Assembly (NCBI GenBank): GCA_028282585.1 | Contig: JANQHR010000149.1 | Location: 1-64,000, forward strand | DNA: 64,000 bases | Direction of reading: 5' to 3' | From: Bacteroidales bacterium | GTDB taxonomy: Bacteria; Bacteroidota; Bacteroidia; Bacteroidales; UBA12077 | The notes under the pieces: generated by a model | What the model was told of the DNA's origin: nothing | Seen by the model: the letters and a program-made list of their open reading frames with translations, nothing else | Database searches by the model: none | Shown: one piece after another, positions 6,789-63,110 of the stretch | How the letters are laid out: each line of letters opens with the position of its first letter | How positions within the stretch are numbered: the stretch's first letter is position 1 | Position numbers and translations under genes: made by a program

Positions 6789-9700
6789 CACGTATGTTTT
6801 GTTCATATTTTAATTTTCTATTTCGTAACATTATTGCTACTTCAACTTCTTCTCTTTCCGGTTTAACACCAGTCCATAAGTATTTTAAATATACACGCAT
6901 GTCATTCAAGAGCATAATTAACACCGGGAAAAAAATGAGAATAAATATGGTACCAATAAAAACACCATATGCTAAGCTTATGGCCATTGGAATCAGAAAC
7001 TGTGCCTGAACACTTTTCTCTAAAATAATTGGAAATAACCCAATGGTTGTCGTAATACTTGTTAAGATAATCGGACGTAAGCGAAGTTTACCAGCTTCCA
7101 CAATGGCATCATGAACTTTTTTTCCTGCCAGTAAATTTCCATCATATTTTGAAAGGAAAACAATAGCATCATTAATAATTACCCCTGTAAGTGCCACCAT
7201 ACCCCACAAACTAATAATAGAAAGTGGTTTACCATGAATTCCATGCCCCCAAAACACACCTAGCAATGATAACGGAATCATAGCAATAATAATAATCGTT
7301 TGATTAAAACTCTTAAAGTGAATAATCATTACAAAAATGATAACTATAAATGCGATTAGAAAATAACTTGATACTTTAGACATGGCTTCACGGCCATATT
7401 TCTGTTGACCTTGATATTCATAACGAATCCCAGCATATTGTCCTTCTACATCTGGCATAATCTCGGTACTAATTTGTGCAAGAATTTCCGGAACAGGATA
7501 TAATGGATCAACCAGGTCGGCTTCAACACGAATTTCGCGCGAACCGTTATATCTTTGGATTGCTACAGGGCCTCTTTCCAGATGATAATCCGCTAATTCT
7601 GTTAGTGGGAAATCTCCAACGGAAGTTTTGATCTTCATATTTTCCATCTGCCCAATGGTTAATCGATCGGTTTTAGGATACCTCACCCAAACACGTAACT
7701 CATCTCTACCTTCTTGTAATCGCTGTGCCTGCCCTCCATAAAAACCCTGACGAACCTGTTGTGCAATAGTGTTTTCATCCAATCCTAAAAAGTATGCTTT
7801 GGGTTTCAGCTTTAAACGAACCTCTTGTTTTCCAAGTGCTATATTTTCATTGATGTCTTTTAACTGAGGTAATCCTGTTAATCTATTCATTAAATAATCT
7901 TTGGCTTCTTCTAATTCTTGCAGGTTCTTCGACATTAAGCTAATTGATACAGGTGAACCCCATCGATTACGACCACCTACTGTAAATTTTCGGGCTTCAG
8001 GTACTTTGCCAATTCTTTGCCTAACTAAATTCGAGATCTCATAGCCGCTGATATCAATTCCTTCCAAATCAACCGGAAAAACTCTAAGATTTCCTGCGTG
8101 GGCACCAACTTCCTGTCCACTGAATGAGCTACCAACAGATCTTATTACCCGATCAATAATAGGTTCTTCCAGATTGAATTTTTCCGTTAGTTCATTACTT
8201 ACTTCCCAAACTGCAGTTTCAAATTCTTTTAAATATTCTTCTGTTTGCTTTTCACCATCACCAGGAGTAAATGCCAGGTTTACATTAAAACTATCAAAAT
8301 CAACCATGGGAAAAAAAGTAGTTCGAATATGCCCTCCAGATACTAATCCGGTCGTAATTAAAAATAAGGCAATCGGAATACCAATTACAACATGACGCCA
8401 CTTTAGCAACCATAGTAAAATATAATGGTAAATATCATCACGCAACCAAACAATGAATCGCTCAAAATATTTTTTTACTCCTTTTCTTTTTCTTTGTAAA
8501 CTTTTTCTACTTAATATATGATGATTACTTAAGTGAGCTGGTAAAACCAGAAAAGCTTCGAATAAAGAAAAGAATAAACTAAATATTACAACAATAGCCA
8601 TATGAAACATCATTTCCATACGGGTTCCAGCCAAAAATAACAAGGGCGCAAAAGCAATAATGGTTGTAGTAACTGAAGTCAATACGGCTGGGTAAACTTC
8701 CATTGTGCCATCCACAGCAGCTTTCATGGGTGTTTTGCCTTTTTCAAAATGCAAATAGATATTTTCTGCGATCACAATTCCATCATCAACCAGAATACCT
8801 ATAACCAGTATCATCCCAAACAAAGAAATCATGTTAATAGTTATTCCTATGATATTAGCCATGATAAACATAGCTAGAAAACTGAAAGGAATTCCCCATG
8901 AAACCCATAATGATAGTTTTACATTTAAGAACATCGATAACACAACGATCACCAGAATAAGTCCTATGATACCATTCTTGGTTAGCAAATCCAGTCTGCT
9001 CTGAAGTATCTCCAAAAATGCAAAAGATATATCCAATTTAACACCATGATCTTCTTCATTGAATTCTTTTCTGTATTTATTAGCATACTTTGTGATTGCG
9101 GCTAAATCCTCTTCAGGTAATTTGTCAATACTTAAAAAGACAGTTTGTTTACCATTTACCCATGATTTATTCGAAGTATCTGCAAATTTCTTTTTAACCT
9201 CGGCAACATCACTTATTCTTATATAGCTTCCATCATCCTGGCCTCGCAAAATAATATTACCTATTTTGTTCGGATCTGTGCTTCTGGAACGAAGACGAAT
9301 CAATAATTCTTCCTCATCGGATTTGATCTGACCTCCTGATATATCTTGGTTATTGGCTTGTATAGCTTGAATAATTTCGCTTATGGTAAGGTTATATCGA
9401 AGAAGTGCTTCTTCTTTAACTTCAACTGAAATTTCAGGAGAAGGAAAGCCAGAAATATTTACCTGGCTCATAACTCCTGAATTAATTAAATCTTCCTGAA
9501 TTCTTTGTGCATGTTCCTTTAATGTCATTAGATCTGGTTCCGCATTATCATCAGGAACCAGCGACATATATAATGCTCCTGATCTGGATCTCTGTTTTGA
9601 TACGATCGGCCTCTCTGCAGCGGTAGGTAATGATGAAATTCCATCCACAGCATTTTTTACCTCCATTAAGACTTCATCAATTGGAAACTCTCCTGTTGTT

Positions 9701-9984
9701 TCAATTCTAACACGAGAACTATTTTCGACCGAAGTTGAGGTTATCTCTTTAATACCAACCAATCCGCGAATTGCTTCCTCGATTCTTGAGGTTACACCTT
9801 CTTCCATTTCTACAGGCGAAGCTCCGGGATAAAAAACAGAAACAATAATAATCCGGCTTTCTGTTTCGGGGAAGAAAGCCTTTTTCATATTTAACAAACT
9901 GATAACACCTGCTAGCACAACAAAAGCAATAATCAGGTTGGCATATATTGGATATTCTACGAAACGTTCAACAATTTTTTTCAT
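6775..9984 (-). CDS. RND efflux permease (AcrB/AcrD/AcrF family)
   Basis: 1069 aa, YPGASPVEME, GILVDDGIVIAENI, RLRPIILTSITT. Confidence 0.95.
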   Translation of the reverse strand: MKKIVERFVEYPIYANLIIAFVVLAGVISLLNMKKAFFPETESRIIIVSVFYPGASPVEMEEGVTSRIEEAIRGLVGIKEITSTSVENSSRVRIETTGEFPIDEVLMEVKNAVDGISSLPTAAERPIVSKQRSRSGALYMSLVPDDNAEPDLMTLKEHAQRIQEDLINSGVMSQVNISGFPSPEISVEVKEEALLRYNLTISEIIQAIQANNQDISGGQIKSDEEELLIRLRSRSTDPNKIGNIILRGQDDGSYIRISDVAEVKKKFADTSNKSWVNGKQTVFLSIDKLPEEDLAAITKYANKYRKEFNEEDHGVKLDISFAFLEILQSRLDLLTKNGIIGLILVIVVLSMFLNVKLSLWVSWGIPFSFLAMFIMANIIGITINMISLFGMILVIGILVDDGIVIAENIYLHFEKGKTPMKAAVDGTMEVYPAVLTSVTTTIIAFAPLLFLAGTRMEMMFHMAIVVIFSLFFSLFEAFLVLPAHLSNHHILSRKSLQRKRKGVKKYFERFIVWLRDDIYHYILLWLLKWRHVVIGIPIALFLITTGLVSGGHIRTTFFPMVDFDSFNVNLAFTPGDGEKQTEEYLKEFETAVWEVSNELTEKFNLEEPIIDRVIRSVGSSFSGQEVGAHAGNLRVFPVDLEGIDISGYEISNLVRQRIGKVPEARKFTVGGRNRWGSPVSISLMSKNLQELEEAKDYLMNRLTGLPQLKDINENIALGKQEVRLKLKPKAYFLGLDENTIAQQVRQGFYGGQAQRLQEGRDELRVWVRYPKTDRLTIGQMENMKIKTSVGDFPLTELADYHLERGPVAIQRYNGSREIRVEADLVDPLYPVPEILAQISTEIMPDVEGQYAGIRYEYQGQQKYGREAMSKVSSYFLIAFIVIIFVMIIHFKSFNQTIIIIAMIPLSLLGVFWGHGIHGKPLSIISLWGMVALTGVIINDAIVFLSKYDGNLLAGKKVHDAIVEAGKLRLRPIILTSITTTIGLFPIILEKSVQAQFLIPMAISLAYGVFIGTIFILIFFPVLIMLLNDMRVYLKYLWTGVKPEREEVEVAIMLRNRKLKYEQNIRDEDE

Positions 9985-10013
9985 AACACTGAAATTAGCT
10001 GGTGCAAACTAGT

Positions 10014-11204
10014 TTAACTTTTTCCTTCCACATCATTATCTTTCTTCTTTGCGGGTTTTTGTTTTTGATCATCACTATTATGAATCTCCACCAAAGTACC
10101 CTCAAGCACATTGATCAACGGTTGCATCACCAGCATTTGACCTTCTTCCAAACCATTGAATATTAACGTTTTTTCATTTAATTTAATGATGTTGATTTGT
10201 CTTTTATGCAATCTTCCTTCGTTTACAATAAATACTTCGTTGGTATTAAATACCACATTTCTGGGAATTTCCATTACATTTTCAACCGGATGACCTGGAA
10301 AAGTAGCTTTTAAAAACTCTCCAGCCAATAATGGTTTACTCTTATTATTCTTAACCTGAATAAAGATATTTTGAGATTGAGTAGCAGGATCAACAAATTG
10401 ACTTTTGCGAGCAACTCTACCTTCCCAGTCTAATGATCGAGTATCAGAATGAACTATAACTTTATCTCCAATTTTTACCCACTCTGCATCGAAACGATCT
10501 AATGGAACTTCCAATTCCAAAATATCAGTTTTGATAGCATGAGCAACTTTTCCTCCTGCATTTGTATAAGCTCCAGCTTCTAAATAAACTTCGGAATACG
10601 TTCCATTAAACGGAGCATAAATCGTACGACGGTTCAATTGAAGTTCATCTTTTAAAATTTCGAAATACTCACTTAAAACATTTTTACTTGCCAAAAATAT
10701 TTCCAGTTTTTCATTCTCTACTATCGGGAATTTTGGCAGTTTCTTTTCTACATTTATCGTATTAAAGAAATTTCTAAACTGAGATTCATACTCGGGATAA
10801 TCAATCCTAATATCCGGTAATAAATTAGCTATAGTATTTAAATATTGACTTTTTCTTGACTGAAGAGCTAATTTTGCTTCATCAGGATATATAGTAAATA
10901 AAATGTCTCCTTTTAAAAATTCACTACCTAACTTTAATGGAACTTGCGAAACCAAAATTTTACCTGATGCTTCAGCCATAATATCAACCTGAGCAGTCGA
11001 TACAACTCTTCCCGGTGCCTTTACCGGTGCCATTACGGTTTTGTATTTGATCTCTTCAGCTTTAACAAATCTTTTTGCAACAACAGGTGGACGACGAAAC
11101 GGTTCATCTTTTAGTGCTTTTAGGTATTCCATTAGACCATATGCTAAACCCACAATAAAAATAAAGGCAGCTACAATGACTATTCTTCTGTCAATTTTTT
11201 TCAT
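10014..11204 (-). CDS. RND periplasmic adaptor subunit
   Basis: N-terminal anchor, IYAPFNG hairpin/lipoyl motif, position in the operon. Confidence 0.88.
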   Translation of the reverse strand: MKKIDRRIVIVAAFIFIVGLAYGLMEYLKALKDEPFRRPPVVAKRFVKAEEIKYKTVMAPVKAPGRVVSTAQVDIMAEASGKILVSQVPLKLGSEFLKGDILFTIYPDEAKLALQSRKSQYLNTIANLLPDIRIDYPEYESQFRNFFNTINVEKKLPKFPIVENEKLEIFLASKNVLSEYFEILKDELQLNRRTIYAPFNGTYSEVYLEAGAYTNAGGKVAHAIKTDILELEVPLDRFDAEWVKIGDKVIVHSDTRSLDWEGRVARKSQFVDPATQSQNIFIQVKNNKSKPLLAGEFLKATFPGHPVENVMEIPRNVVFNTNEVFIVNEGRLHKRQINIIKLNEKTLIFNGLEEGQMLVMQPLINVLEGTLVEIHNSDDQKQKPAKKKDNDVEGKS

Positions 11205-26564: not shown

Positions 26565-26615
26565 AAAATACCAACAATTAGGTATTGTCCGTCCGAAATA
26601 GAATTTGAACATTTG
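26565..26615 (+). promoter_or_regulatory. 23-bp box 1 plus -7 element
   Basis: AAAATACCAACAATTAGGTATTG, 20-nt spacer, AACATTTG. Confidence 0.7.
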
Positions 26616-26619
26616 TATC

Positions 26620-26982
26620 ATGAAAATCTCATTAAGAGACATATTTAAAAAGGCAGGGTTTATTATCATGATATGTTTTGTTGGTCTAATGATAGCCAAC
26701 AAAGTTATGTATACGCATATTCATAAACTTGAAGATGGCAGCGTTGTGGTCCATGCCCACCCTTATGATAAGTCCGAGAATGAGAATTCAGGAGAAACAC
26801 ACCATCATGTTAAAGCAGAACTATTCTTTTTACAAAGTTTAGAACTTCTGTTTTATATGGCAATCTTATCTGGTATTTTATACCTGGGATTTTTAGTTTT
26901 AGAAATACTTTCTTACTCTTTTGTTTTATATAAGAGCAATAATTTATCGTTATCATTAGGCAGGGCCCCTCCTTGTAACTAA
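26620..26982 (+). CDS. His-cluster membrane-anchored leader ORF with C-terminal RAPP motif
   Basis: TM segment, HIH-x4-G-x4-HAHPY-x10-THHH, GRAPPCN; paralog of 59904-60275. Confidence 0.8.
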   Translation: MKISLRDIFKKAGFIIMICFVGLMIANKVMYTHIHKLEDGSVVVHAHPYDKSENENSGETHHHVKAELFFLQSLELLFYMAILSGILYLGFLVLEILSYSFVLYKSNNLSLSLGRAPPCN

Positions 26983-27119
26983 TTCCTTACAATTTTATAG
27001 GTTTTAATTTTAATTGATGCATGAAAAGCTACTCGCATGTGCATCAGTCTTTTACTCAGCTGTAATCATTATAAATGATTATGCTAAAATTAATATCTCA
27101 TTATAAATAACGATTAGTT

Positions 27120-27464
27120 ATGAGTAATTACTTAAGCCAAACAAAAAACGGACGTATTTTTCGATGTGCCTCATGCGATAAAATCCACATTGAATTTAAT
27201 AATATAAACTTCAATTTCAATGATAAGGAGTTTGAGCGTTTTGCAAGTTATTTTGATGATTTGGACGGTGAGTATTGGGAAAACATGAACTTTCAAATTA
27301 ACTACCGCAGAAAAATTATTATTCCGGTAGGCCACAAAAACATTAATTTCTTATTAAATAAAGAAGAATTGAATGAGCTAAAAAGCCTTTTAGCCAATGC
27401 AAATATTTATAACAAACCATTAAAACTCGTTAAGAATTTTAAGTACTCATTTTGTAATAACTAA
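27120..27464 (+). CDS. DUF6686-like protein
   Basis: CxxC..IHIEFNNINFNF, LNKEELNELKSLL. Confidence 0.65.
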   Translation: MSNYLSQTKNGRIFRCASCDKIHIEFNNINFNFNDKEFERFASYFDDLDGEYWENMNFQINYRRKIIIPVGHKNINFLLNKEELNELKSLLANANIYNKPLKLVKNFKYSFCNN

Positions 27465-27470
27465 ATTAAA

Positions 27471-27977
27471 ATGAAAAAAGTAGGAATATTTTACGGTTCA
27501 TCAACCGGTAACACAGAAACAGCAGCCAATCAAATACAACAAGAACTAGGAACTGATATGGCTGATGTTAAAGAAGTAATAGACGCAGGTGCAGGCGACC
27601 TTGAAGTATATGCAAATATTATTTTGGGGGCCTCGACCTGGGGCATTGGAGATATGCAGGATGATTTTGACGTTTTTCTAACAGAATTAGAAAATGCAAA
27701 TCTTGAAGGGAAAAAAGTTGCCATTTTTGGATTAGGCGATCAGGATACTTATCCTGACTCCTTTGTTGATGCAATTGGAATAATATATGAAACAATAGAA
27801 GGTAAAGGTTGCGAAGTTATCGGAAAAATATCAAAAGATGGTTATAGCTATGATGTATCGAAAGCCGAAATCAACGGTGAGTTGGTTGGTTTACCATTAG
27901 ACGAAGAGAACCAGGGAAATTTAACAAATGAAAGAATCAAGAACTGGATTCAGCAAATAAAAGGACAGTTTAATTAG
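27471..27977 (+). CDS. fldA: Long-chain flavodoxin
   Basis: IFYGSSTGNTE, GASTWG, FGLGDQ..YPDSFVDA, GLPLDEEN. Confidence 0.95.
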   Translation: MKKVGIFYGSSTGNTETAANQIQQELGTDMADVKEVIDAGAGDLEVYANIILGASTWGIGDMQDDFDVFLTELENANLEGKKVAIFGLGDQDTYPDSFVDAIGIIYETIEGKGCEVIGKISKDGYSYDVSKAEINGELVGLPLDEENQGNLTNERIKNWIQQIKGQFN

Positions 27978-28038
27978 ATAGTTTAATATAGTACTCAACA
28001 CTTTGATTTCTGGCAATTTTGAAGCATGAGTAATTCTT

Positions 28039-28092
28039 AAAAAGCAGGGGGCGATTGACCCGTAAGCCATTATAAATCTCCCCCCTCTTTTT
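28039..28092 (+). terminator. Stem-loop/terminator after fldA
   Basis: AGGGGGCGATT...AATCTCCCCCCT followed by a T-run. Confidence 0.55.
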
Positions 28093-28106
28093 AAAAAATG
28101 TAACGT

Positions 28107-28502
28107 ATGAAAATTTCATGTACAGATTATAAATCCGGTGATATGCAGATTTTAATGCATCATATTTACGAATTTAAAAAGGGCCTAAGAAACCTGGTGT
28201 TGCATACAATGAATAAAAGTGAGCAATACCTAGCCGAAGATTTATTGATGCGCAAAGGTATCTGCTATAAAATTCAAGAAGTTAATGCATCCAAAATCAA
28301 TGTGTTTTTTGGTAAAATTCAATGTGTAAGGATTGTCGAATCTTTTGGTAATAAATCATTGGCCAATATCTCTGATGAGCAAGATTTCATATTGGGAGTC
28401 ATGCTTGGATATGATAGAACACAGCAATGTGATAGATATATAAAACGGAAAAATTTAAACGCGGAGTTTATTAACAGTCAGGATCTTGCCGTGGCAATTT
28501 AA
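28107..28502 (+). CDS. DUF2023 family protein
   Basis: HHIYEFKKGLRNLVL, NVFFG, EQDFILGVMLGYD..QCDRY; usual neighbour of fldA. Confidence 0.85.
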   Translation: MKISCTDYKSGDMQILMHHIYEFKKGLRNLVLHTMNKSEQYLAEDLLMRKGICYKIQEVNASKINVFFGKIQCVRIVESFGNKSLANISDEQDFILGVMLGYDRTQQCDRYIKRKNLNAEFINSQDLAVAI

Positions 28503-28679
28503 TTAGTACTGGGTTTATTTAAATTCAATGTATAAATGATTAAGAATATTTGGCAGATACCAATCAAAATATACTTATAGTTAGTCAAATATGAACTCTA
28601 TATATAACACCTCTTTAGTAGCTGCAAACAGCAACTAGTCTATAAACCTGAAATTACATTAAACCTAAAAACAATCATT

Positions 28680-28820
28680 ATGAGCCAGATCATCCAAATT
28701 AAGCAAACAACTAAAAATGTAAGAGTATTTAGCGTTGGAACCCAAAACTTTTTTATTGAAGACTGGAATAAAAACCAAACTGAAACCAATTTAAAAACTC
28801 TCAAAAAGAATATAAAATGA
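28680..28820 (+). CDS. Putative 46-aa small ORF overlapping the TBDR start (ATGA)
   Basis: MSQIIQIKQTTKNVRVFSVGTQNFFIEDWNKNQTETNLKTLKKNIK; A-rich upstream region; TGA 28818-20 overlaps ATG 28817. Confidence 0.4.
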   Translation: MSQIIQIKQTTKNVRVFSVGTQNFFIEDWNKNQTETNLKTLKKNIK

Positions 28821-30982
28821 AAAAACTTGCATTATTGGTATTCATGTTGATTTTTGGGACGGTTTACGCTAATAATCCAGAAATATTAGTATTAGATAAA
28901 GAAAATAAAGAACCCATTCCTTATGCCAATATTTGCTTTGAAGAAATTAATACTCAAGCAAAATTCCATACAATAACAACTGTACATGGAATTGCAAAAA
29001 ATCCGGTTCAGAATCAGTCCATTGTAGCCATATCCTTTGTTGGTTACAAAACAATTATCGATACAATAAAACAAGATGAGTCTAGAGAATATCTAATGGA
29101 ACAAGATTTATTCAACATGGAGCAGGTTGTTGTTACCGGTACCAGGACCAGAAAAACTCTAGGTAAAAGCCCAATTTTAACAAAAATTGTTACAGGGGTA
29201 GAATTACAGGAAGCCGGAGCAGTTACTGCCCTTGATGCTTTAGAATATTCAATGCCGGGAGTACAGTTCTCACCTGATGGGCATGGCGATAATCTTCAAA
29301 TACAAGGGCTGGATAACGACTATATACTTGTTCTGGTAAATGGTGAAAGAATGGTTGGCGAAACCAGGGGTAATGTAAACTTCAGCAGACTTAATGCAGA
29401 AAACATAAAACAAATAGAAATTGTAAATGGAGCTTCTTCAGTTTTATATGGATCTAATGCAATAGGTGCTGTAATTAATATCATAACTAACGATAACAAT
29501 TTTACAAAATCTTTTTCTGCTACAGTGAGTTCCAGGTATACGAAAAATAATACCTTACTTATATCATCAAATGTAGGTATATCGTTAAATAAGTTAAATA
29601 TACATTTAAATGGATTTAGAAGCAGTACAGATGGATATGACCTGACACCCCAAACTCCCGCTTCATACACTGTTGATAAATATACAGACTATTCTGGCAA
29701 GCTTAAATTAGGTTATAAGTTTAACGATAAAATTACCTTATCTACACAAGGGGTTTACTTTCGGCATGAGATAAATAATCCTGAAAAAAGTACTAAATCA
29801 ACACATAATTTAAATAAAAACTATACCCTCGGCGGAAAATTATCCATACAGGTAAATGAAAAGCAATCTATTGAATTTAGAGCAAATACGGACATTTATA
29901 ACTCATATACCGTTTACGAACGACGAAACGATGAAAAAGAATTAAAGTCGGACTATCAGTTTTCATCATTCTTTTTAATGGATACTTATACGCCCTTAAG
30001 TAATCTTGAAATTATAATCGGGACAGAATTAAACTTAGAAAATATCTATTCAATTCAACTATTTGGAGAAACAGGAGACAAGGATAAAGATTCATATGAT
30101 TACAATGCATTTTTACAATTAGACTATGAACTAATTGAAGATATTGTATTAGTTGGGGGATTGAGATATACATACCATACAAATTATGGTAATCATATTA
30201 CTCCAAAATTATCATTAATGTATTCTCCCAAAAGATTTAAGTTCAGAGGGAATATAGCAAAGGGTTATAAGGCCCCTACTTTAAAAGAACTTCACTATAA
30301 TTTCGATCACAGCGGGATGTTTATGATTTATGGAAATCCTGATTTAAAACCCGAAAATGCATTCTACACTTCTGTTTCGGCCGAATATACCAGAAATTTA
30401 TTCAATATCTCCATAAATGCTTATAACAATTCAATAAATGATAAAATAGAGTCTGTCGACCGTGTTAACAGCGAAACAGATATGCTTGAAAAACACTATA
30501 TGAATGTAAATGAAGCAGTGTTAAGAGGCATAGAAAGCTATGTTTCAATTAGCCCTTTAAAAAATACGATGTTAAAAACCGGTTATGCTTATTCTGATAC
30601 AGAAGAAAAATCAACTGGTTTGCAGCTTTATGGAAATAGTGTTCATACCGGAACAGTTGCTCTTTCGTATAAAATTTCTAAAATAAAATTTCCTTTAAGC
30701 GTAAATATTAGCGGGCGAATTTCGTCTGGCAGATTATTTCAATATCAGGAAACAGAAGAAAATTCTGATACAGGGGTCGAAGAAACTACCATTTATAAGG
30801 ATGAAAGCGATGCTTATTCTATGTGGAAATTTACTTATAACCAACAATTTAAATTAAGAAATAAATTAACTATTCAGGCTTTAGCCGGAGTTAATAATAT
30901 ATTCGATTATGTAGACACCAAAGACCTGGCTGTAATTGACCCAGGTAGGAGGCTCTTTTTTGGAGTTAAATTTATTTTATAA
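28817..30982 (+). CDS. hmuR: TonB-dependent heme receptor (HmuR-like)
   Basis: VVVTGTRT, IEIVNGASSVLYGSNAIGAVINIIT, YKAP, HSG..GNPDLKPE; adjacent to hmuY/hmuS. Confidence 0.8.
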   Translation: MKKLALLVFMLIFGTVYANNPEILVLDKENKEPIPYANICFEEINTQAKFHTITTVHGIAKNPVQNQSIVAISFVGYKTIIDTIKQDESREYLMEQDLFNMEQVVVTGTRTRKTLGKSPILTKIVTGVELQEAGAVTALDALEYSMPGVQFSPDGHGDNLQIQGLDNDYILVLVNGERMVGETRGNVNFSRLNAENIKQIEIVNGASSVLYGSNAIGAVINIITNDNNFTKSFSATVSSRYTKNNTLLISSNVGISLNKLNIHLNGFRSSTDGYDLTPQTPASYTVDKYTDYSGKLKLGYKFNDKITLSTQGVYFRHEINNPEKSTKSTHNLNKNYTLGGKLSIQVNEKQSIEFRANTDIYNSYTVYERRNDEKELKSDYQFSSFFLMDTYTPLSNLEIIIGTELNLENIYSIQLFGETGDKDKDSYDYNAFLQLDYELIEDIVLVGGLRYTYHTNYGNHITPKLSLMYSPKRFKFRGNIAKGYKAPTLKELHYNFDHSGMFMIYGNPDLKPENAFYTSVSAEYTRNLFNISINAYNNSINDKIESVDRVNSETDMLEKHYMNVNEAVLRGIESYVSISPLKNTMLKTGYAYSDTEEKSTGLQLYGNSVHTGTVALSYKISKIKFPLSVNISGRISSGRLFQYQETEENSDTGVEETTIYKDESDAYSMWKFTYNQQFKLRNKLTIQALAGVNNIFDYVDTKDLAVIDPGRRLFFGVKFIL

Positions 30983-59161: not shown

Positions 59162-59431
59162 AACCAAATTGCATTTGATGATGCTGTTAAAGTTGCAATT
59201 AAATTTGCTGAAAGCTGACAAGATACTTTGTTTATCATTATAACTGACCTCAGAAATGCAAACTCTGACTTAATAAAATCCAAAAAAGTAAATAAAATGT
59301 TTGACACCATTCAAAAAGCTAAGCATAGAAACGAATGTATATTTAACGGAATTAAACAAAGCGATAGTCCTTCTTAAGTAATTGAACGAATTAACTACGC
59401 ACAAGGAATTACCATAAGTAATAAAGAGGCT
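59162..59431 (+). pseudogene. Alkaline phosphatase (PhoA-like) internal remnant
   Basis: NQIAFDDAVKVAIKFAES*QDTLFIIITDLRNANS...VIERINYAQG with two in-frame stops. Confidence 0.65.
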
Positions 59432-59456
59432 GTCCAAAAAGTAAAAGGACAGCCTC
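59426..59456. repeat. Short inverted repeat related to the MITE ends
   Basis: GAGGCTGTCC-AAAAAGTAAAA-GGACAGCCTC; shares TGTCCAAAAAGT with the MITE TIR. Confidence 0.55.
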
Positions 59457-59516
59457 ATTTAAATATTTTTTATCCTTATAAAAACTGTATCGTTTTTTTA
59501 GGGCTAGTCATTCGAT

Positions 59517-59567
59517 AAAATACCAACATTTTGGTATTGATTCAAATTAATACTTTTCTAAAATTTG
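59517..59567 (+). promoter_or_regulatory. 23-bp box 5 plus -7 element
   Basis: AAAATACCAACATTTTGGTATTG, 20-nt spacer, AAAATTTG. Confidence 0.7.
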
Positions 59568-59569
59568 TA

Positions 59570-59686
59570 ATGTAAATTATTTCGAAAAGATATTTTATAA
59601 AAGTGTTAGGTTTTTTATTGTAATCTTTAAAAGTAGGGAGTTATAGCGTAGGTCATAGAATTAATTTTCTCTCTACTTTTTCTTTG
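59570..59686 (+). ncRNA. Candidate small RNA or leader RNA
   Basis: Lies between the box-5 promoter and the hairpin AAAAGTAGGGAG/CTCTCTACTTTT+TCTTT; no convincing ORF. Confidence 0.35.
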
Positions 59687-59903
59687 TAAAATTTAGTAAT
59701 TTTTAATACGGTTTAATTACCAACCTTTGTATTACTTCCTCAAGAAGTTAACAAAAAACAGATTACCTTAAACTAATTTGATTTAACAGTATTAATATTC
59801 TATAAGAAATAGAAAATAATAATCATTTAAATTAAACTAATCATAATAATTTTAGTCTTACAACATTAATTAACGCAAATTATATCTAAGATTTGTCGCC
59901 AAA

Positions 59904-60275
59904 ATGAAGAGGAATTTTTTAAACAAAATAAATCGCTTTATTTTATGTCTGTTTATCGGATTGATAACCGGATATATTTTCAATTCTATATTTTTTCTTC
60001 ATAGCCATACGGATCTTAATGGTAAGAAAATTCAGCACGCCCACCCCTATAAAAAAAGTTCGGATAACAACTCCTTACCAACTCACCATCATACTTCAGA
60101 TGAAATCGTTTTTTTAGAATTTAGTTCAATACTATTTGAATTTACAAATGAAATTGTGTTAGAACACTTTTCTAGTTTCGTTAGCACAATTTCTTCTTAT
60201 GAATATTCGTTTAGCAAGAATTCGTATTTCTTCACTAAAAGTGCACGTGGTCCGCCAAATTTAATTTCAGCATAG
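59904..60275 (+). CDS. His-cluster membrane-anchored leader ORF with C-terminal RGPP motif
   Basis: TM segment, HSH-x4-G-x4-HAHPY-x10-THHH, ARGPP; paralog of 26620-26982. Confidence 0.8.
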   Translation: MKRNFLNKINRFILCLFIGLITGYIFNSIFFLHSHTDLNGKKIQHAHPYKKSSDNNSLPTHHHTSDEIVFLEFSSILFEFTNEIVLEHFSSFVSTISSYEYSFSKNSYFFTKSARGPPNLISA

Positions 60276-60419
60276 AATATTAATTTCATTGCTAATTTAT
60301 TAATGTCAAATTCATTGCTTTTGATAAAGCATTGTATCGTATTATTTTATATAATCTATTTTAAATTAATCCGAAAACTTAACCAGTATTCATGTGAATA
60401 GTACTAATTAATATAGAAA

Positions 60420-62810
60420 ATGAAAACAATTAAATTATACTTATCCCAATTAATTTTATTTATTATCATCACAACCAACGCTTTTGCGCAGCATACAGAC
60501 GCTAATATTGTTGGGCACGTTACGGATAAAAATGGCGAACATATTCCATTTGCCACGATTGTGCTTCAAAATACAACTGTTGGAACAGCCACAGACGAAA
60601 CCGGTCATTACAGTTTAATTAATATGCCCATAGGAAAATTTGTTATTAGAGCAACAGCAGTTGGTTACAAACCTCAAGAAAAAGAGGTAGAGCTAAAAGA
60701 AGATCTAACTATTGAAGTAAAATTTGAATTGGAAGAAGATATACTTGGCATTGAACAGGTTGTTGTTACAGCTGACAGGAACGATAAAAGAAGAACCGAA
60801 GCTTCGGTAATTGTAAATACCATAACTCCAAGAATATTTTCAGTAGCGCAAACAGCAACAATCAGTGACGGATTAAATTTCTGTCCGGGGCTTAGAATGG
60901 AAAGTAATTGTCAGAATTGTGGTTTTTCCCAAGTAAGAATGAACGGAATGGAGGGCCCTTATTCACAAATTCTAATTAATAGTCGTCCAATCTTTAGTGG
61001 TTTAGCCGGTGTTTATGGGTTGGAACTTATCCCATCAAGTATGATTGAAAGAATGGAAGTTATTCGTGGTGGAGGTTCTGCACTGTACGGAAGTAACGCG
61101 ATTGCAGGAACAATAAATCTGATCTTAAAAGATCCGATAAACAACTCTTACGAAGCTGGTATAACCTCGGGTTATACAGGTATTGGTGTTGACGGTGGTG
61201 GCAACCCGGCTTTTGATTATAATGTTAATTTTAATACTTCGTTAGTTTCGTCAGATAGTAAAACCGGTATGGCTTTATATGGTTATCATAGAAATCATGA
61301 CGCATATGATGCAAACGATGATAGTTTTTCGGAAATTACCCAGAAAAATAATATAACCGTTGGAACAAGAGTTTTTCATCGGTTTGGCCATCGTAATAAA
61401 ATAGCACTCGATTTTTTTACTATTAACGAAGACCGCAGAGGCGGTGATAGTTTAGGTTTACCTGAACATCGGGCAAATATAGCAGAATCCTTAGGTCATA
61501 AAATAACGACAGGAGCTCTATCATTTGATCAATTTTTCAGAGAAAGCGACAAATTATCATTATATACGTCCGGACAAAAAGTAAATCGCGATTCTTATTA
61601 TGGTGCTGAGCAATCTTTAAAAGATTACGGTAAAACAGTCGGCTTTACGTATATATTTGGAGCTCAATACTCTGCTAATTTTTTAAATTCTAATTTAACA
61701 GGAGGTTTTGAATATAAGGGGGAAACATTAAAAGATGAAAAGCTAGGCTATATAGATTTGGAAAATGCTCAAATTATTAATGATAACTTAGTAGCTCCAA
61801 ATGTTGGAAATAGTTTAGTGGCAGATCAAGATCTTTCAATATGGGGAGCTTTTGCTCAATATGAACGTGCTTTTAATAAATTAAGTGTTTCCGTTGGAGC
61901 CAGGTTTGATCATTATATGATTGAAGATAATGACCATAATTCAAAAAAAGAAGGAAATGTTTTAAGTCCCAGATTAACATTAAAATACGACATTCTCAAT
62001 TCACTTCAGGCTCGTTTCAGCTATTCTCAAGGATACCGTGCACCACAAATCTTCGATGAAGACCTGCATATTGAAGCATCTGCTTACAGAACTGTCATCC
62101 ATGAAAACGATCCTAACTTAAAGCAAGAAACCAGTCAGAGTTATATGGCATCATTAGACTTTAATAAATTGATCGGAAACGTAAATCTTGGATTTTTAGC
62201 AGAAGGATTTTACACGAAATTAAATGATGCTTTTGCAAGTGCACCGGAGGATCACCCAACTGAAGAAGGTGTAGTTATATATACAAGGGTAAATTCAGAA
62301 GATGGCGCTGTTGTTCAAGGAATAAATATGGAGCTAAACCTTGTTCCTGTCGGAACAGAATTCTCATTAACCGGGGGATTTACAATCCAAAAAAGCGAAT
62401 ACGAGAACCCTCAGGAAGAATTTAATGAAAAAAGCTTTTTTAGAACACCTAATAACTATGGTTATTTAACCCTGGATTGGGATTTATACAAAGGTTTTCG
62501 CTTTTCGGCAACCGGAAATTATACCGGAAGTATGTTAGTTCCGTATTACGGTACTGAACTTCCTGCCGGAGATGTAAGAGATACTGGTGAATTAAGAGAA
62601 TCAGATCCATTTTTTGATATTGGAACAAAGTTAAGCTATCAGTTTAAATTAAATGGTGCCAGTATGCAAATGTTTGCTGGAATGAAAAATATATTTAATT
62701 CTTACCAGAACGATTTTGATGTTACAAAGGACAGAGATCCTGGTTATCTATATGGTCCGTCATTACCAAGAACAGTATATTTTGGAGTTAAAATAGGTAA
62801 TCTTTTATAA
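60420..62810 (+). CDS. TonB-dependent receptor with plug CxxC motif
   Basis: GLRMESNCQNCGF, EVIRGGGSALYGSNAIAG, YRAPQIFDEDLH, YLYGP..PRTVYFG. Confidence 0.92.
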   Translation: MKTIKLYLSQLILFIIITTNAFAQHTDANIVGHVTDKNGEHIPFATIVLQNTTVGTATDETGHYSLINMPIGKFVIRATAVGYKPQEKEVELKEDLTIEVKFELEEDILGIEQVVVTADRNDKRRTEASVIVNTITPRIFSVAQTATISDGLNFCPGLRMESNCQNCGFSQVRMNGMEGPYSQILINSRPIFSGLAGVYGLELIPSSMIERMEVIRGGGSALYGSNAIAGTINLILKDPINNSYEAGITSGYTGIGVDGGGNPAFDYNVNFNTSLVSSDSKTGMALYGYHRNHDAYDANDDSFSEITQKNNITVGTRVFHRFGHRNKIALDFFTINEDRRGGDSLGLPEHRANIAESLGHKITTGALSFDQFFRESDKLSLYTSGQKVNRDSYYGAEQSLKDYGKTVGFTYIFGAQYSANFLNSNLTGGFEYKGETLKDEKLGYIDLENAQIINDNLVAPNVGNSLVADQDLSIWGAFAQYERAFNKLSVSVGARFDHYMIEDNDHNSKKEGNVLSPRLTLKYDILNSLQARFSYSQGYRAPQIFDEDLHIEASAYRTVIHENDPNLKQETSQSYMASLDFNKLIGNVNLGFLAEGFYTKLNDAFASAPEDHPTEEGVVIYTRVNSEDGAVVQGINMELNLVPVGTEFSLTGGFTIQKSEYENPQEEFNEKSFFRTPNNYGYLTLDWDLYKGFRFSATGNYTGSMLVPYYGTELPAGDVRDTGELRESDPFFDIGTKLSYQFKLNGASMQMFAGMKNIFNSYQNDFDVTKDRDPGYLYGPSLPRTVYFGVKIGNLL

Positions 62811-63084: not shown

Positions 63085-63110
63085 TAAAGCCGCCAAATTT
63101 AGCGGCTTTA
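63085..63110. terminator. Bidirectional terminator
   Basis: TAAAGCCGC-N8-GCGGCTTTA. Confidence 0.7.

Follow-up and report, generated by a model that had tools for sequence, protein, structure and literature searches.

We propose that a small open reading frame (ORF) of 123 codons at 59904-60275, located on the + strand directly before a gene for a TonB-dependent receptor, is a candidate metal-sensing arrest peptide of the CruR/CutF type that controls the receptor in cis, a reading that its sequence features make probable in our estimation. The window analysed here comprises 64,000 nucleotides of a contig from a Bacteroidales bacterium. Metal-sensing and RAPP-type arrest leaders are already known from earlier work (Roy 2022; Öztürk 2023; Fujiwara 2025), and the His-cluster family described below is a new variant.

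Inspection of the sequence bore out the layout given in a preliminary description of this DNA, from the length of the ORF and its transmembrane helix to the positions of its motifs. The N-terminal hydrophobic helix (residues about 12-32; 59937-59999), called from hydropathy and an AF2 model only, has a best 19-residue Kyte-Doolittle window of 2.13 and is preceded by a K/R-rich N-terminus. The His cluster (H33-x-H35, G40, H45-A-H47-P-Y, H61-x-H63; 60000-60092) begins with HSH at residues 33-35 (60000-60008), which is followed after four residues by G40, then by HAHPY at residues 45-49 (60036-60050) and, 10 residues further on, by THHH at residues 60-63 (60081-60092). A 51-residue linker (residues 64-114) separates THHH from RGPP (residues 115-118; 60246-60257), the putative ribosome-arrest motif, which lies five codons ahead of the stop codon at 60273-60275. 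The linker region contains a second predicted helix (residues 65-112; 60096-60239) that includes five acidic residues and is only marginally hydrophobic, with a Kyte-Doolittle value of 1.48. In the AF2 model (mean pLDDT 79.5, pTM 0.39) helices span residues 2-31 and 65-112, with a beta-hairpin formed by residues 32-36 and 42-46, and a Foldseek search with this model against the PDB returned no match at E ≤ 0.001. The single Cys of the ORF, C15, is in helix 1, and the conserved ligands are the six His. No Pfam match was found at E ≤ 1, and no NCBIfam model matched.

A full HMMER search among 1.84 billion representatives identified 1261 representative clusters matching the ORF at E ≤ 0.001, 358 of them at E ≤ 1e-10 (a word-index protein search gave 2 only), with lengths of about 84-168 aa among the matches listed. 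Judged by these matches, the ORF is not a chance reading frame and belongs to a large, unnamed family of Bacteroidota proteins for which there is no Pfam or NCBIfam model. Genera that carry the family include the culturable Parabacteroides, Bacteroides, Dysgonomonas, Draconibacterium and Marinilabilia. In the protein atlas the clusters nearest to the ORF are all unnamed Bacteroidota "hypothetical protein" entries, the nearest named cluster being DUF6769 (score 0.94); within the family itself cluster names are likewise "hypothetical protein", apart from one evidently mislabelled "NRAMP" entry. The family is characterised by six invariant His, two hydrophobic helices and R-x-P-P located 1-16 residues from the C-terminus. 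In the alignment H33, H35, H45, H47, H61 and H63 show no variation, R115, P117 and P118 almost none. Of 152 relatives, 143 have R-x-PP no more than 12 aa from the C-terminus (RAPP 98, RSPP 24, RGPP 17). The N-terminus carries a net charge of +2.5 on average, and the second helix reaches a Kyte-Doolittle value of at least 1.6 in 135 of 151 relatives, where K/R residues follow the segment. Over the His loop, 48 of 60 relatives match the HypB N-terminal nickel-binding prefix model (NF053668) at E ≤ 0.1. The cut-off of 35 bits was not reached (among eight relatives scanned singly, three scored 20-21 bits and one 13.8 bits) and the ORF itself gave no match to this model; we read these matches as pointing towards a Ni/Zn-type His motif and do not infer membership from them.

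The distance between the last His pair and the arginine of the motif is 51 residues in 131 of 150 relatives in the top-150 sample, a constancy that is inflated because the ranking profile penalises indels. In a receptor-anchored sample, loci were picked through the receptor and not through the small ORF. Here [RK]xPP is present in 67 of 70 small ORFs, the remaining three ending in RAPT, and the distance from the last His pair to the motif is 50-56 residues in 66 of 67, whereas the H4-H5 loop on the periplasmic side can be anything between 5 and 24. In alignment columns 92-113 the commonest residue occurs in at most 44 of 152 sequences, yet there are at most four gaps. This suggests, at the level of sequence, that the linker behaves as a ruler whose length is fixed and whose sequence drifts. 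With a ribosome stalled on the motif, the last His pair would be about 54 residues from the catalytic centre, roughly the exit tunnel plus one membrane span, and a distance set by this geometry may account for a linker that is constant in length and free to drift in sequence. The topology on which this argument depends is least certain in the copy at 59904-60275, since its second helix is only marginally hydrophobic.

The receptor gene (60420-62810, + strand) encodes a protein of 796 aa with CarboxypepD_reg-like, Plug and barrel domains according to Pfam (PF07715 at 67 bits and PF00593 at 110.9 bits, both above their cut-offs, with PF13715 at the N-terminus); its best NCBIfam match, TIGR01785 (TonB-dependent heme/hemoglobin receptor), scores 110.8 bits against a cut-off of 316.85. 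As proposed initially, it is a single TonB-dependent receptor with a CxxC plug, in which N-C-Q-N-C-G is encoded at 60906-60923 (C164, C167); C155, C164 and C167, the only Cys of the receptor, all fall within the Plug match at residues 127-231. In linked receptors the first Cys of the plug NCxNC is present in 14 of 14 and the second in 13 of 14. The two-gene unit is closed by a terminator-like hairpin at 63085-63110, which is shared with the convergent gene (9 pairs on the + strand, 13 on the - strand) and corresponds to the terminator noted earlier. The small ORF lies directly before a receptor of the same subfamily in 14 of 16 copies from 14 genomes and, viewed from the receptor, is found upstream on the same strand at 70 of 80 loci; four of the ten loci without it have no upstream DNA, hence 70 of 76 assessable loci. 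No conserved gene was detected downstream of the receptor in the 12 loci examined, and the unit includes no other inner-membrane component.

The preliminary description took a second occurrence in the window as independent support for a reusable cis-regulatory module. A second occurrence is indeed present: a paralogous unit at 26567-26982 (+ strand) consists of an operator-like site (26567-26587) and a small ORF that ends in GRAPPCN (mechanical TTG start at 26605, probable ATG at 26620) and that shares 32% identity with the ORF at 59904-60275 (E 1e-18). Since the two are paralogs of one family, they are not independent inventions, and the copy at 26605-26982 heads a DUF6686-flavodoxin-DUF2023-TBDR cluster with no TonB-dependent receptor directly behind it. 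RAPP, RGPP and RSPP are absent from the 2774 ORFs of at least 200 aa in this genome, against 7.9 expected from composition, and of the 8592 mechanical ORFs with 50-300 aa just 6 end in R[AGS]PP, five of which are membrane His/Cys ORFs preceding metal-related genes. Two further RAPP/RGPP small ORFs before metal genes are unrelated in sequence to the His-cluster family; in hhalign comparisons with them the motif alone aligns (probability 3.3% and 0.3%). These unrelated ORFs are better evidence for a reusable module than the paralogs in the window.

The arrangement of the small ORF and receptor looks like an operon with its promoter ahead of the small ORF. A palindromic operator-like site, AATACC-N8-GGTATTG, is located at 59519-59539, and its last TTG doubles as the -33 element of a promoter-like sequence, P1 (59537-59567), in which this TTG is followed after 19 nt by TAAAATTTG. 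Next comes ATG-TAA at 59570; the leader predicted from P1 is about 335 nt long and folds no better than shuffled sequence (z = 0.01). The palindrome has five perfect matches in the 4.9-Mb genome, three before the three family ORFs and one before feoAB, and the P1/operator layout is the same at the two paralogs of the small ORF; for the copy at 59904-60275 the operator-plus-promoter match at 59519-59567 is the only one found. The published Riemerella Fur consensus differs from this palindrome (PMC5609570), and we therefore leave its regulator unnamed. Bacteroidota initiate translation without Shine-Dalgarno pairing. The ORF had been described as near-leaderless, which holds for the family: a TAnnTTTG box lies 5-12 nt before the small-ORF ATG at 20 of 65 relative loci, compared with 34 of 2711 long ORFs of the genome, and within 150 nt upstream of the small ORF at 42 of 65 loci, against 6 of 65 with such a box in the spacer. 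For the copy at 59904-60275 the assignment is uncertain, since an imperfect Bacteroidota -7-like box, TAAGATTTG (59887-59895), 8 nt before the ATG, provides a candidate near-leaderless promoter P2 to set against P1 about 335 nt upstream.

The untranslated spacer between the two genes (60276-60419) has the 144 nt reported previously and is 81% A+T, whereas the small hairpins noted in it are no more stable than those of shuffled sequences (z = 0.16). Scans of the spacer revealed no terminator-like site on the + strand and no TAnnTTTG box; with C at 10.4% and G at 9.0%, it also lacks a rut-like surplus of C. Within the small ORF C exceeds G, but His and Pro codons cause this imbalance, which is not independent evidence. 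When the spacer of the 59904-60275 copy was aligned with those of the C92 paralog and G391, no conserved block emerged; the C92 paralog spacer folds with z = -1.39. A search of the complete window against Rfam at gathering thresholds found nothing, nor did a search of 59400-60500 with the limit relaxed to E ≤ 1. A metagenome scan for close relatives yielded 12 loci, all at most 45% identical, and the spacers of relatives are between 8 and 750 nt long. Neither a conserved sequence nor a conserved structure was seen in the spacer.

Comparative evidence on motif, spacing, linkage, promoter position and motif avoidance strongly favours the proposed likeness to a cruR-receptor unit in which His replaces CxxC. 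CruR (DUF2946; Bordetella pertussis bp2923) is a copper-responsive upstream ORF of the TonB-dependent transporter BfrG/CrtA (PMC9426467; PMC12914433), in which CXXC is followed after 45 residues by RAPP with conserved spacing, and a long intergenic region is subject to Rho-dependent termination (PMC9426467). In both systems the first gene is small and its product has an export or membrane signal at the N-terminus, followed by a ligand motif whose distance to a RAPP-type motif, itself only a few residues ahead of the stop, is constant; then come a long untranslated spacer (162 nt for CruR, 144 nt here) and a TonB-dependent receptor. Unlike CruR, the family has six His and a distance of 50-56 residues, a second hydrophobic helix is present in most relatives, the host belongs to the Bacteroidota and not to the Proteobacteria, and the receptor is of a different subfamily with an N-C-x-N-C plug. 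There is also no sequence relationship to PF11162, which gave no match in the ORF (E ≤ 1) and none in the whole genome, control genomes responding; in 60 relatives it is absent among the 25 listed of 29 matched Pfam families (E ≤ 0.1). With regard to CutF, the ORF conforms to the rule used for CutF-like proteins in being shorter than 150 aa, with PP within its 15 C-terminal residues and a same-strand gene within 1000 nt, and hydropathy and the AF2 model indicate the N-terminal hydrophobic signal. In the published description of CutF-like proteins, 19-40% are from Bacteroidota, TonB-like neighbours are common and some clusters have His motifs only (PMC9973294); the two His-only clusters described there (14 and 17) neighbour HupE/UreJ genes, unlike the small ORF with its TonB receptor.

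Arrest activity of RAPP/RGPP and enrichment of small ORFs with these motifs upstream of TonB-dependent receptors in Gram-negative bacteria have been reported in a study that also used a PURE translation system for CruR (PMC12992588). The small ORF has the sequence of a RAPP/RGPP-type regulatory arrest peptide, arrest itself being predicted, and resembles ApcA, ApdA and ApdP in that it lies upstream of another gene and its small product, a membrane or secretory protein, has an RGPP core near the C-terminus; our genome count also reproduces the reported exclusion of the motif from the rest of the proteome. ApcA, ApdA and ApdP monitor Sec/YidC activity, not metal, and the TonB-linked small ORFs of that survey are nearly all signal-peptide proteins, no His-cluster family being given as far as its main text extends (PMC12992588). 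More generally, a literature search over main texts turned up no description of the His-cluster family.

Taken as an arrest peptide, the ORF may work as follows. The promoter boxes in relatives suggest that small ORF and receptor would be co-transcribed from a promoter ahead of the small ORF, with the separate operator overlapping the promoter adding transcriptional control. The K/R-rich N-terminus and first helix would place the His cluster on the periplasmic side, and the ribosome would stall with R-G-P-P at the peptidyl-transferase centre, as shown for RAPP/RGPP in other bacteria. A stalled ribosome would keep the downstream RNA productive and the receptor would be made. Binding of metal by the His cluster would promote folding or insertion that pulls on the chain, releasing the stall so that translation ends, the 144-nt spacer is exposed and receptor expression drops. 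The small inner-membrane protein would thus act mainly while still on the ribosome. The drop might involve Rho-type polarity as in CruR, and rho is encoded in the genome; counting against this reading are a spacer that has no conserved sequence, significant fold or C excess, and spacers in relatives that go down to 8 nt, the shortest leaving little room for Rho loading. The genomic context hints at iron as the sensed metal, which is our leading guess.

A more ambitious version, that of a nascent-chain sensor of periplasmic metal with a design unlike CruR and CutF, we consider doubtful. In this scheme, the pioneer ribosome on a leaderless or near-leaderless message would stall at R-x-P-P; the chain would be stretched through tunnel and membrane, with the six-His site at the periplasmic face and the 50-56-residue linker as ruler; metal, possibly Fe(II), would free the stall and shut off a receptor whose plug Cys pair is redox-sensitive; the cell, with the feoAB-type operator, would read cytoplasmic and periplasmic metal separately; and in one genome at least three metal-binding heads of unrelated sequence would have acquired the R-x-P-P ending.

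The main competing explanation, which we regard as unlikely, is that the ORF encodes a stable two-helix inner-membrane metal-binding protein that works with the receptor in trans. Such a protein could accept or hand on imported metal, or otherwise belong to the uptake path, and R-x-P-P could be a self-serving pause until the co-translational insertion of helix 2, which ends only about 25 residues short of the C-terminus, is complete, an insertion checkpoint that the ruler between helix 2 and the motif would fit too. The clearly hydrophobic second segment of most relatives with K/R behind it, the well-defined His hairpin and a unit with neither another inner-membrane component nor a conserved gene after the receptor all accord with such a protein, as do the conserved polar residues in or beside the helices (N27, E67); N27, K51, D54, P57, K59 and E67, all strongly conserved in the family, fit a stable protein with its own function equally well and count against the arrest reading. 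On the other hand, the copy at 59904-60275 and the C92 paralog have a second segment of weak or no hydrophobicity, the few residues after PP vary and columns 92-113 are poorly conserved, both as in known regulatory arrest peptides, and the motif is missing from all long ORFs and recurs on unrelated small ORFs before other metal genes. A protein acting in trans would also be compatible with cis-regulation.

Arrest could alternatively act as in SecM or CutF, the stalled ribosome melting a hairpin that hides the receptor start and stalling turning on translation, not transcription; such control is known for CutF, in which metal binding lengthens the stall and opens an mRNA stem-loop (PMC9973294). 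Masking the predicted footprint of a stalled ribosome raised the unpaired probability of the receptor start by more than 0.1 at 11 of 62 loci, against 1 of 62 with a control mask, a contrast that overstates the support because the loci share ancestry. Taken over all loci, the median change was +0.005, and the change at the 59904-60275 locus was +0.003; the arrest site there is 165 nt from the receptor ATG, and the spacer has the unremarkable fold noted above. This locus thus offers no support for an mRNA-hairpin mechanism, which we judge improbable for the unit. Attenuation, with an intrinsic terminator in the spacer whose formation the stalled ribosome prevents, is very improbable, since there is no terminator-like site on the + strand at 60276-60419 and none in 59 of 63 relative spacers, the four that have one comparing with 1.1 expected from shuffles.

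To our knowledge, metal-sensing arrest peptides have so far been proven only for copper, with cysteine ligands, and in Proteobacteria. If the arrest-peptide reading is correct, this mode of metal sensing would extend to histidine ligands and probably to another metal, to the Bacteroidota and to sensors with the geometry of a membrane hairpin, whose ruler can be measured. With only two genes, the unit lends itself by its small size to direct reporter assays and to stalling assays in vitro. The small-ORF family also marks an uncharacterised receptor subfamily with a plug Cys pair, and genome annotation should call such "hypothetical proteins" and treat them as leaders of receptor genes.

The small ORF at 59904-60275 on the forward strand encodes 123 residues with three histidine motifs, HSH (residues 33-35), HAHPY (45-49) and THHH (60-63), together with a glycine at position 40, and, after a 51-residue stretch, RGPP (residues 115-118, 60246-60257) five codons ahead of the stop. 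A 144-nt spacer (60276-60419) leads to a forward-strand gene for a TonB-dependent receptor (60420-62810, 796 aa) with CarboxypepD_reg-like, Plug and barrel domains in Pfam. The receptor has no cysteines other than C155, C164 and C167; each is located in the plug, and two belong to N-C-Q-N-C-G. The unit ends at a terminator-like hairpin (63085-63110) that is common to the convergent gene. These results bear out the preliminary description: the histidine motifs, the 51-residue linker and the position of RGPP were each correct on recheck, and the 144-nt spacer, the receptor with its CxxC plug and the terminator behind it are all present.

No family was recognised for the small ORF in Pfam or NCBIfam. 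The window paralog (26605-26982) is 32% identical to it (E 1e-18), and a third copy, on a different contig of this genome, is followed after 146 nt by a receptor paralog that is 77% identical to the window receptor. A profile search of 1.84 billion representative proteins returned 1261 matches at E≤0.001 and 358 at ≤1e-10; among those listed, the proteins are 84-168 aa long and their alignments reach the very C-terminus. Members carry no source name other than "hypothetical protein", and the protein-atlas clusters closest to the small ORF are unnamed Bacteroidota proteins. On these sequence comparisons, the small ORF is a member of a gene family and not a chance ORF. Across the 152 best sequences, six histidines (33, 35, 45, 47, 61 and 63) vary little or not at all, and the same is true of N27, G40, P48, K51, R115, P117 and P118. 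Members have two hydrophobic segments, the first at about residues 12-32 and preceded by a K/R-rich N-terminus, the second at about 68-91 with a Kyte-Doolittle value of ≥1.6 in 135 of 151 relatives; the second segment of the window copy reaches only 1.48 and contains five acidic residues. In an AlphaFold2 model of the small ORF (mean pLDDT 79.5, pTM 0.39), residues 2-31 and 65-112 are helical, and between them a beta-hairpin that bears histidines (32-36 and 42-46) is followed by a loop; no structure resembling the model was found in the PDB.

The C-terminal motif and its distance from the histidines were analysed in two samples, the first (the 152 best sequences) ranked by profile and the second gathered through the receptor as a counter-check. 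In the first sample, 143 of 152 sequences have R-x-P-P no more than 12 residues from their C-terminus (RAPP 98, RSPP 24, RGPP 17, others 4), the nine exceptions having mostly K-x-PP or a motif placed slightly further in. Among the receptor-anchored small ORFs, 67 of 70 have [RK]xPP (RAPP 43, RGPP 14, RSPP 4, RPPP 3, KAPP 2, KSPP 1) and the remaining three finish in RAPT. The last His pair is 51 residues from the arginine in 131 of 150 sequences of the first sample (range 49-54) and 50-56 in 66 of 67 of the second; in the latter the loop joining the second and third His pairs is 5-24 residues long and the tail behind PP 1-16. Since the commonest residue in columns 92-113 occurs in at most 44 of 152 sequences, yet gaps are almost never seen and the distance is narrowly fixed, it is the length of the linker that is conserved and not its sequence. 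CruR, the DUF2946 (PF11162) copper-responsive leader of Bordetella, has the same property of a preserved ligand-to-motif length. One relative (L007, G141:C22, 1501-1971), a 156-aa ORF overlapping the receptor start, has RASP in place of R-x-PP and may be a decayed copy.

RAPP and RGPP are described as the most robust arrest cores known; they are excluded from bacterial proteomes, and their enrichment is at the C-terminal ends of small proteins, secretory or membrane-bound, whose genes precede, among others, those of TonB-dependent receptors (PMC12992588). The present genome reproduces both the exclusion and the enrichment. Its 2774 ORFs of ≥200 aa (1.29 million residues) contain no RAPP, RGPP or RSPP, against 7.9 expected, and RAPP, RGPP, RSPP, RPPP and RAGP are each absent where composition predicts about 2-4.5 occurrences apiece. 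Among 8592 ORFs of 50-300 aa, only 6 have the motif at their end. Five of these six are membrane, His/Cys-rich proteins: the three family members and two small ORFs (C16:98306-98698, forward strand; C92:35909-36316, reverse strand) which share nothing with the family but the motif and match no Pfam or NCBIfam model. One of the two carries HYNHSCC and lies 47 nt before another TonB-dependent receptor. The other, very rich in histidine, is followed after 88 nt by a CusB/HlyD-type efflux adaptor whose N-terminus is also His-rich. These occurrences suggest a reusable ending joined to different metal-binding heads.

The family profile matched 14 of 401 sampled Bacteroidota genomes, including this one, a lower bound as the first-look filter scored only part of its candidates. 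Fourteen of the 16 family copies directly precede a receptor with an N-C-x-N-C plug motif, the first cysteine being present in 14/14 and the second in 13/14. The exceptions are a locus with an unidentified 367-aa ORF after the small ORF, and the window paralog, which heads a cluster (26605-30982) of DUF6686, flavodoxin, DUF2023 and a different TonB-dependent receptor that has no plug Cys pair; this cluster resembles a low-iron gene set. A reverse scan with one genome per species gave 583 relatives of the N-terminal half of the receptor, and 70 of the best 80 of these loci have a family member upstream on the same strand; four of the ten loci without one offer <160 nt of sequence before the receptor, which brings the figure to 70 of 76 assessable loci. 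Among the hosts are Marinilabilia, Marinifilum, Draconibacterium, Dysgonomonas, Parabacteroides, Bacteroides, Lutibacter and many MAGs; no small ORF was found at two Chlorobi-labelled receptor loci. Directly behind the signal peptide, many receptors of this subfamily (L021-L100) bear Cys pairs (e.g. GHVVCCGKH, GHVTCNCDH) or stretches rich in His/Gln, which speaks circumstantially for a metal-related substrate. Nothing is conserved downstream of the receptor in the 12 loci examined. In two of them (L117, 5429-5893, reverse strand; L124, 4951-5424, forward strand) the end of the receptor gene is overlapped by a gene for a secreted thioredoxin-like protein with an HTDWC-x-YCK motif, a hint at some importance of the redox state of the plug Cys pair. 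The third copy and its receptor are immediately preceded by genes for a sigma-54-dependent response regulator and a histidine kinase (7766-10493, reverse strand, in L020, C92:40000-50500).

Of 65 loci, 42 have the Bacteroidota -7 box TAnnTTTG in the 150 nt ahead of the small ORF and only 6 have it in the spacer, similar total lengths being compared. A gap of 5-12 nt between the end of the box and the ATG is seen in 20 of 65 loci, compared with 34 of 2711 long ORFs of this genome, for which 15-40 nt is usual; a very short or absent leader is thus a family trait. The small ORF had been described as near-leaderless, which holds for the family; the picture for the window copy is mixed, with an imperfect box (TAAGATTTG, 59887-59895, forward strand) 8 nt before its ATG and a candidate promoter about 335 nt upstream (59537-59567) that appears the better supported of the two. 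The latter is associated with a forward-strand palindrome, AATACC-N8-GGTATTG (59519-59539), whose final TTG overlaps the -33 element, with TAAAATTTG 19 nt on. Five perfect matches to the palindrome occur in the whole genome, where a rough hand estimate from base composition predicts about 0.2; three are upstream of the three family ORFs and one precedes a fused feoAB gene (window 59519-59539 and 26567-26587, C92:47626-47646 and C135:30473-30493). In other genomes a relaxed palindrome is present in 10 of 65 loci and a half-site in 22 of 65. The placement of the perfect matches suggests a shared metal-responsive repressor, perhaps responding to iron. The palindrome is unlike the Riemerella Fur box in the literature (PMC5609570). 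In the 335-nt stretch before the small ORF there is neither an ORF nor an Rfam match, and its folding does not exceed that of shuffles. An ATG-TAA start-stop pair (59570-59575) lies 2 nt past the -7 box of the upstream promoter, about where both paralogs have the small ORF's own ATG; the window ORF begins 335 nt later, behind the second box-like sequence, and the intervening region may have been rearranged or carry an insertion. At 59415-59511 lies a repeat of about 55-65 nt with the hairpin GAGGCTGTCC...GGACAGCCTC inside it; the genome has 15 further copies, several of them at contig ends.

Taken with the motif, spacing and receptor linkage, the small ORF probably encodes a cis-acting metal-sensing arrest peptide; the cruR-like interpretation of the preliminary description is partly supported, the support being comparative and, as such, strong. 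The main rival reading, that the product is a stable membrane protein with a pause that serves its own insertion, we regard as rather unlikely. For the arrest peptide we favour a CruR-like logic, in which the stall would switch the receptor on and metal binding would free the stall and switch it off; CruR would be a working analogue, and the small ORF also fits the rule-based definition of CutF-like peptides. At the stall, the last His pair would be about 54 residues from the catalytic centre, roughly the tunnel plus one membrane span, so that a fixed ruler would hold the His cluster at the periplasmic face. This placement depends on the predicted N-in topology and is weakest for the window copy, with its marginally hydrophobic second helix. 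Three routes from stall to receptor were compared. Rho-type polarity, known from CruR and the step we infer here, would need no specific RNA element, which agrees with a spacer that is untranslated, unstructured and not conserved in sequence between paralogs, and rho is present in the genome; this route is weakened by a spacer that is not rich in C and by the very short spacers of some relatives. An mRNA hairpin of the SecM/CutF type is unsupported at the window locus, where footprint masking shifts receptor-start accessibility by only +0.003, and possible in a minority of loci (a shift >0.1 in 11 of 62, versus 1 of 62 with a control mask). An intrinsic terminator is unsupported, with none in the window spacer and 4 in 63 relatives against 1.1 expected.

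Pointers to the metal are divided and none is decisive. Iron is indicated by the palindrome shared with feoAB, by the flavodoxin/DUF2023/receptor cluster behind the paralog, and by the best resemblances of the receptor, which are to heme, colicin I and B12 receptors, far below threshold. Nickel or zinc is indicated by the His loop, which in 48 of 60 relatives resembles an N-terminal motif of HypB below threshold (E≤0.1); a few relatives scored singly gave 14-21 bits against a cut-off of 35, and the window small ORF gave no match.

The small ORF does not belong to DUF2946: PF11162 matched neither the small ORF nor the genome, nor any of 60 relatives among the matches listed (25 of 29 matched Pfam families). 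In published work, His-only clusters adjoin HupE/UreJ genes and many Bacteroidota members adjoin TonB-like genes (Öztürk et al., PMC9973294), and TonB-linked RAPP/RGPP small ORFs occur across Gram-negative bacteria (Fujiwara et al., PMC12992588). A full-text literature search gave no description of the His-leader family, which may already stand uncommented in the supplementary lists of these studies. The principle is the same as that published; what differs is that the sequence family is unrelated, the ligands are His, the predicted membrane part is a hairpin, the layout is leaderless, and the receptors form a dedicated subfamily marked by a plug Cys pair. The concept is already published; the family, which is large, unnamed and easy to test, would carry it into a phylum and a ligand chemistry that are new to it.
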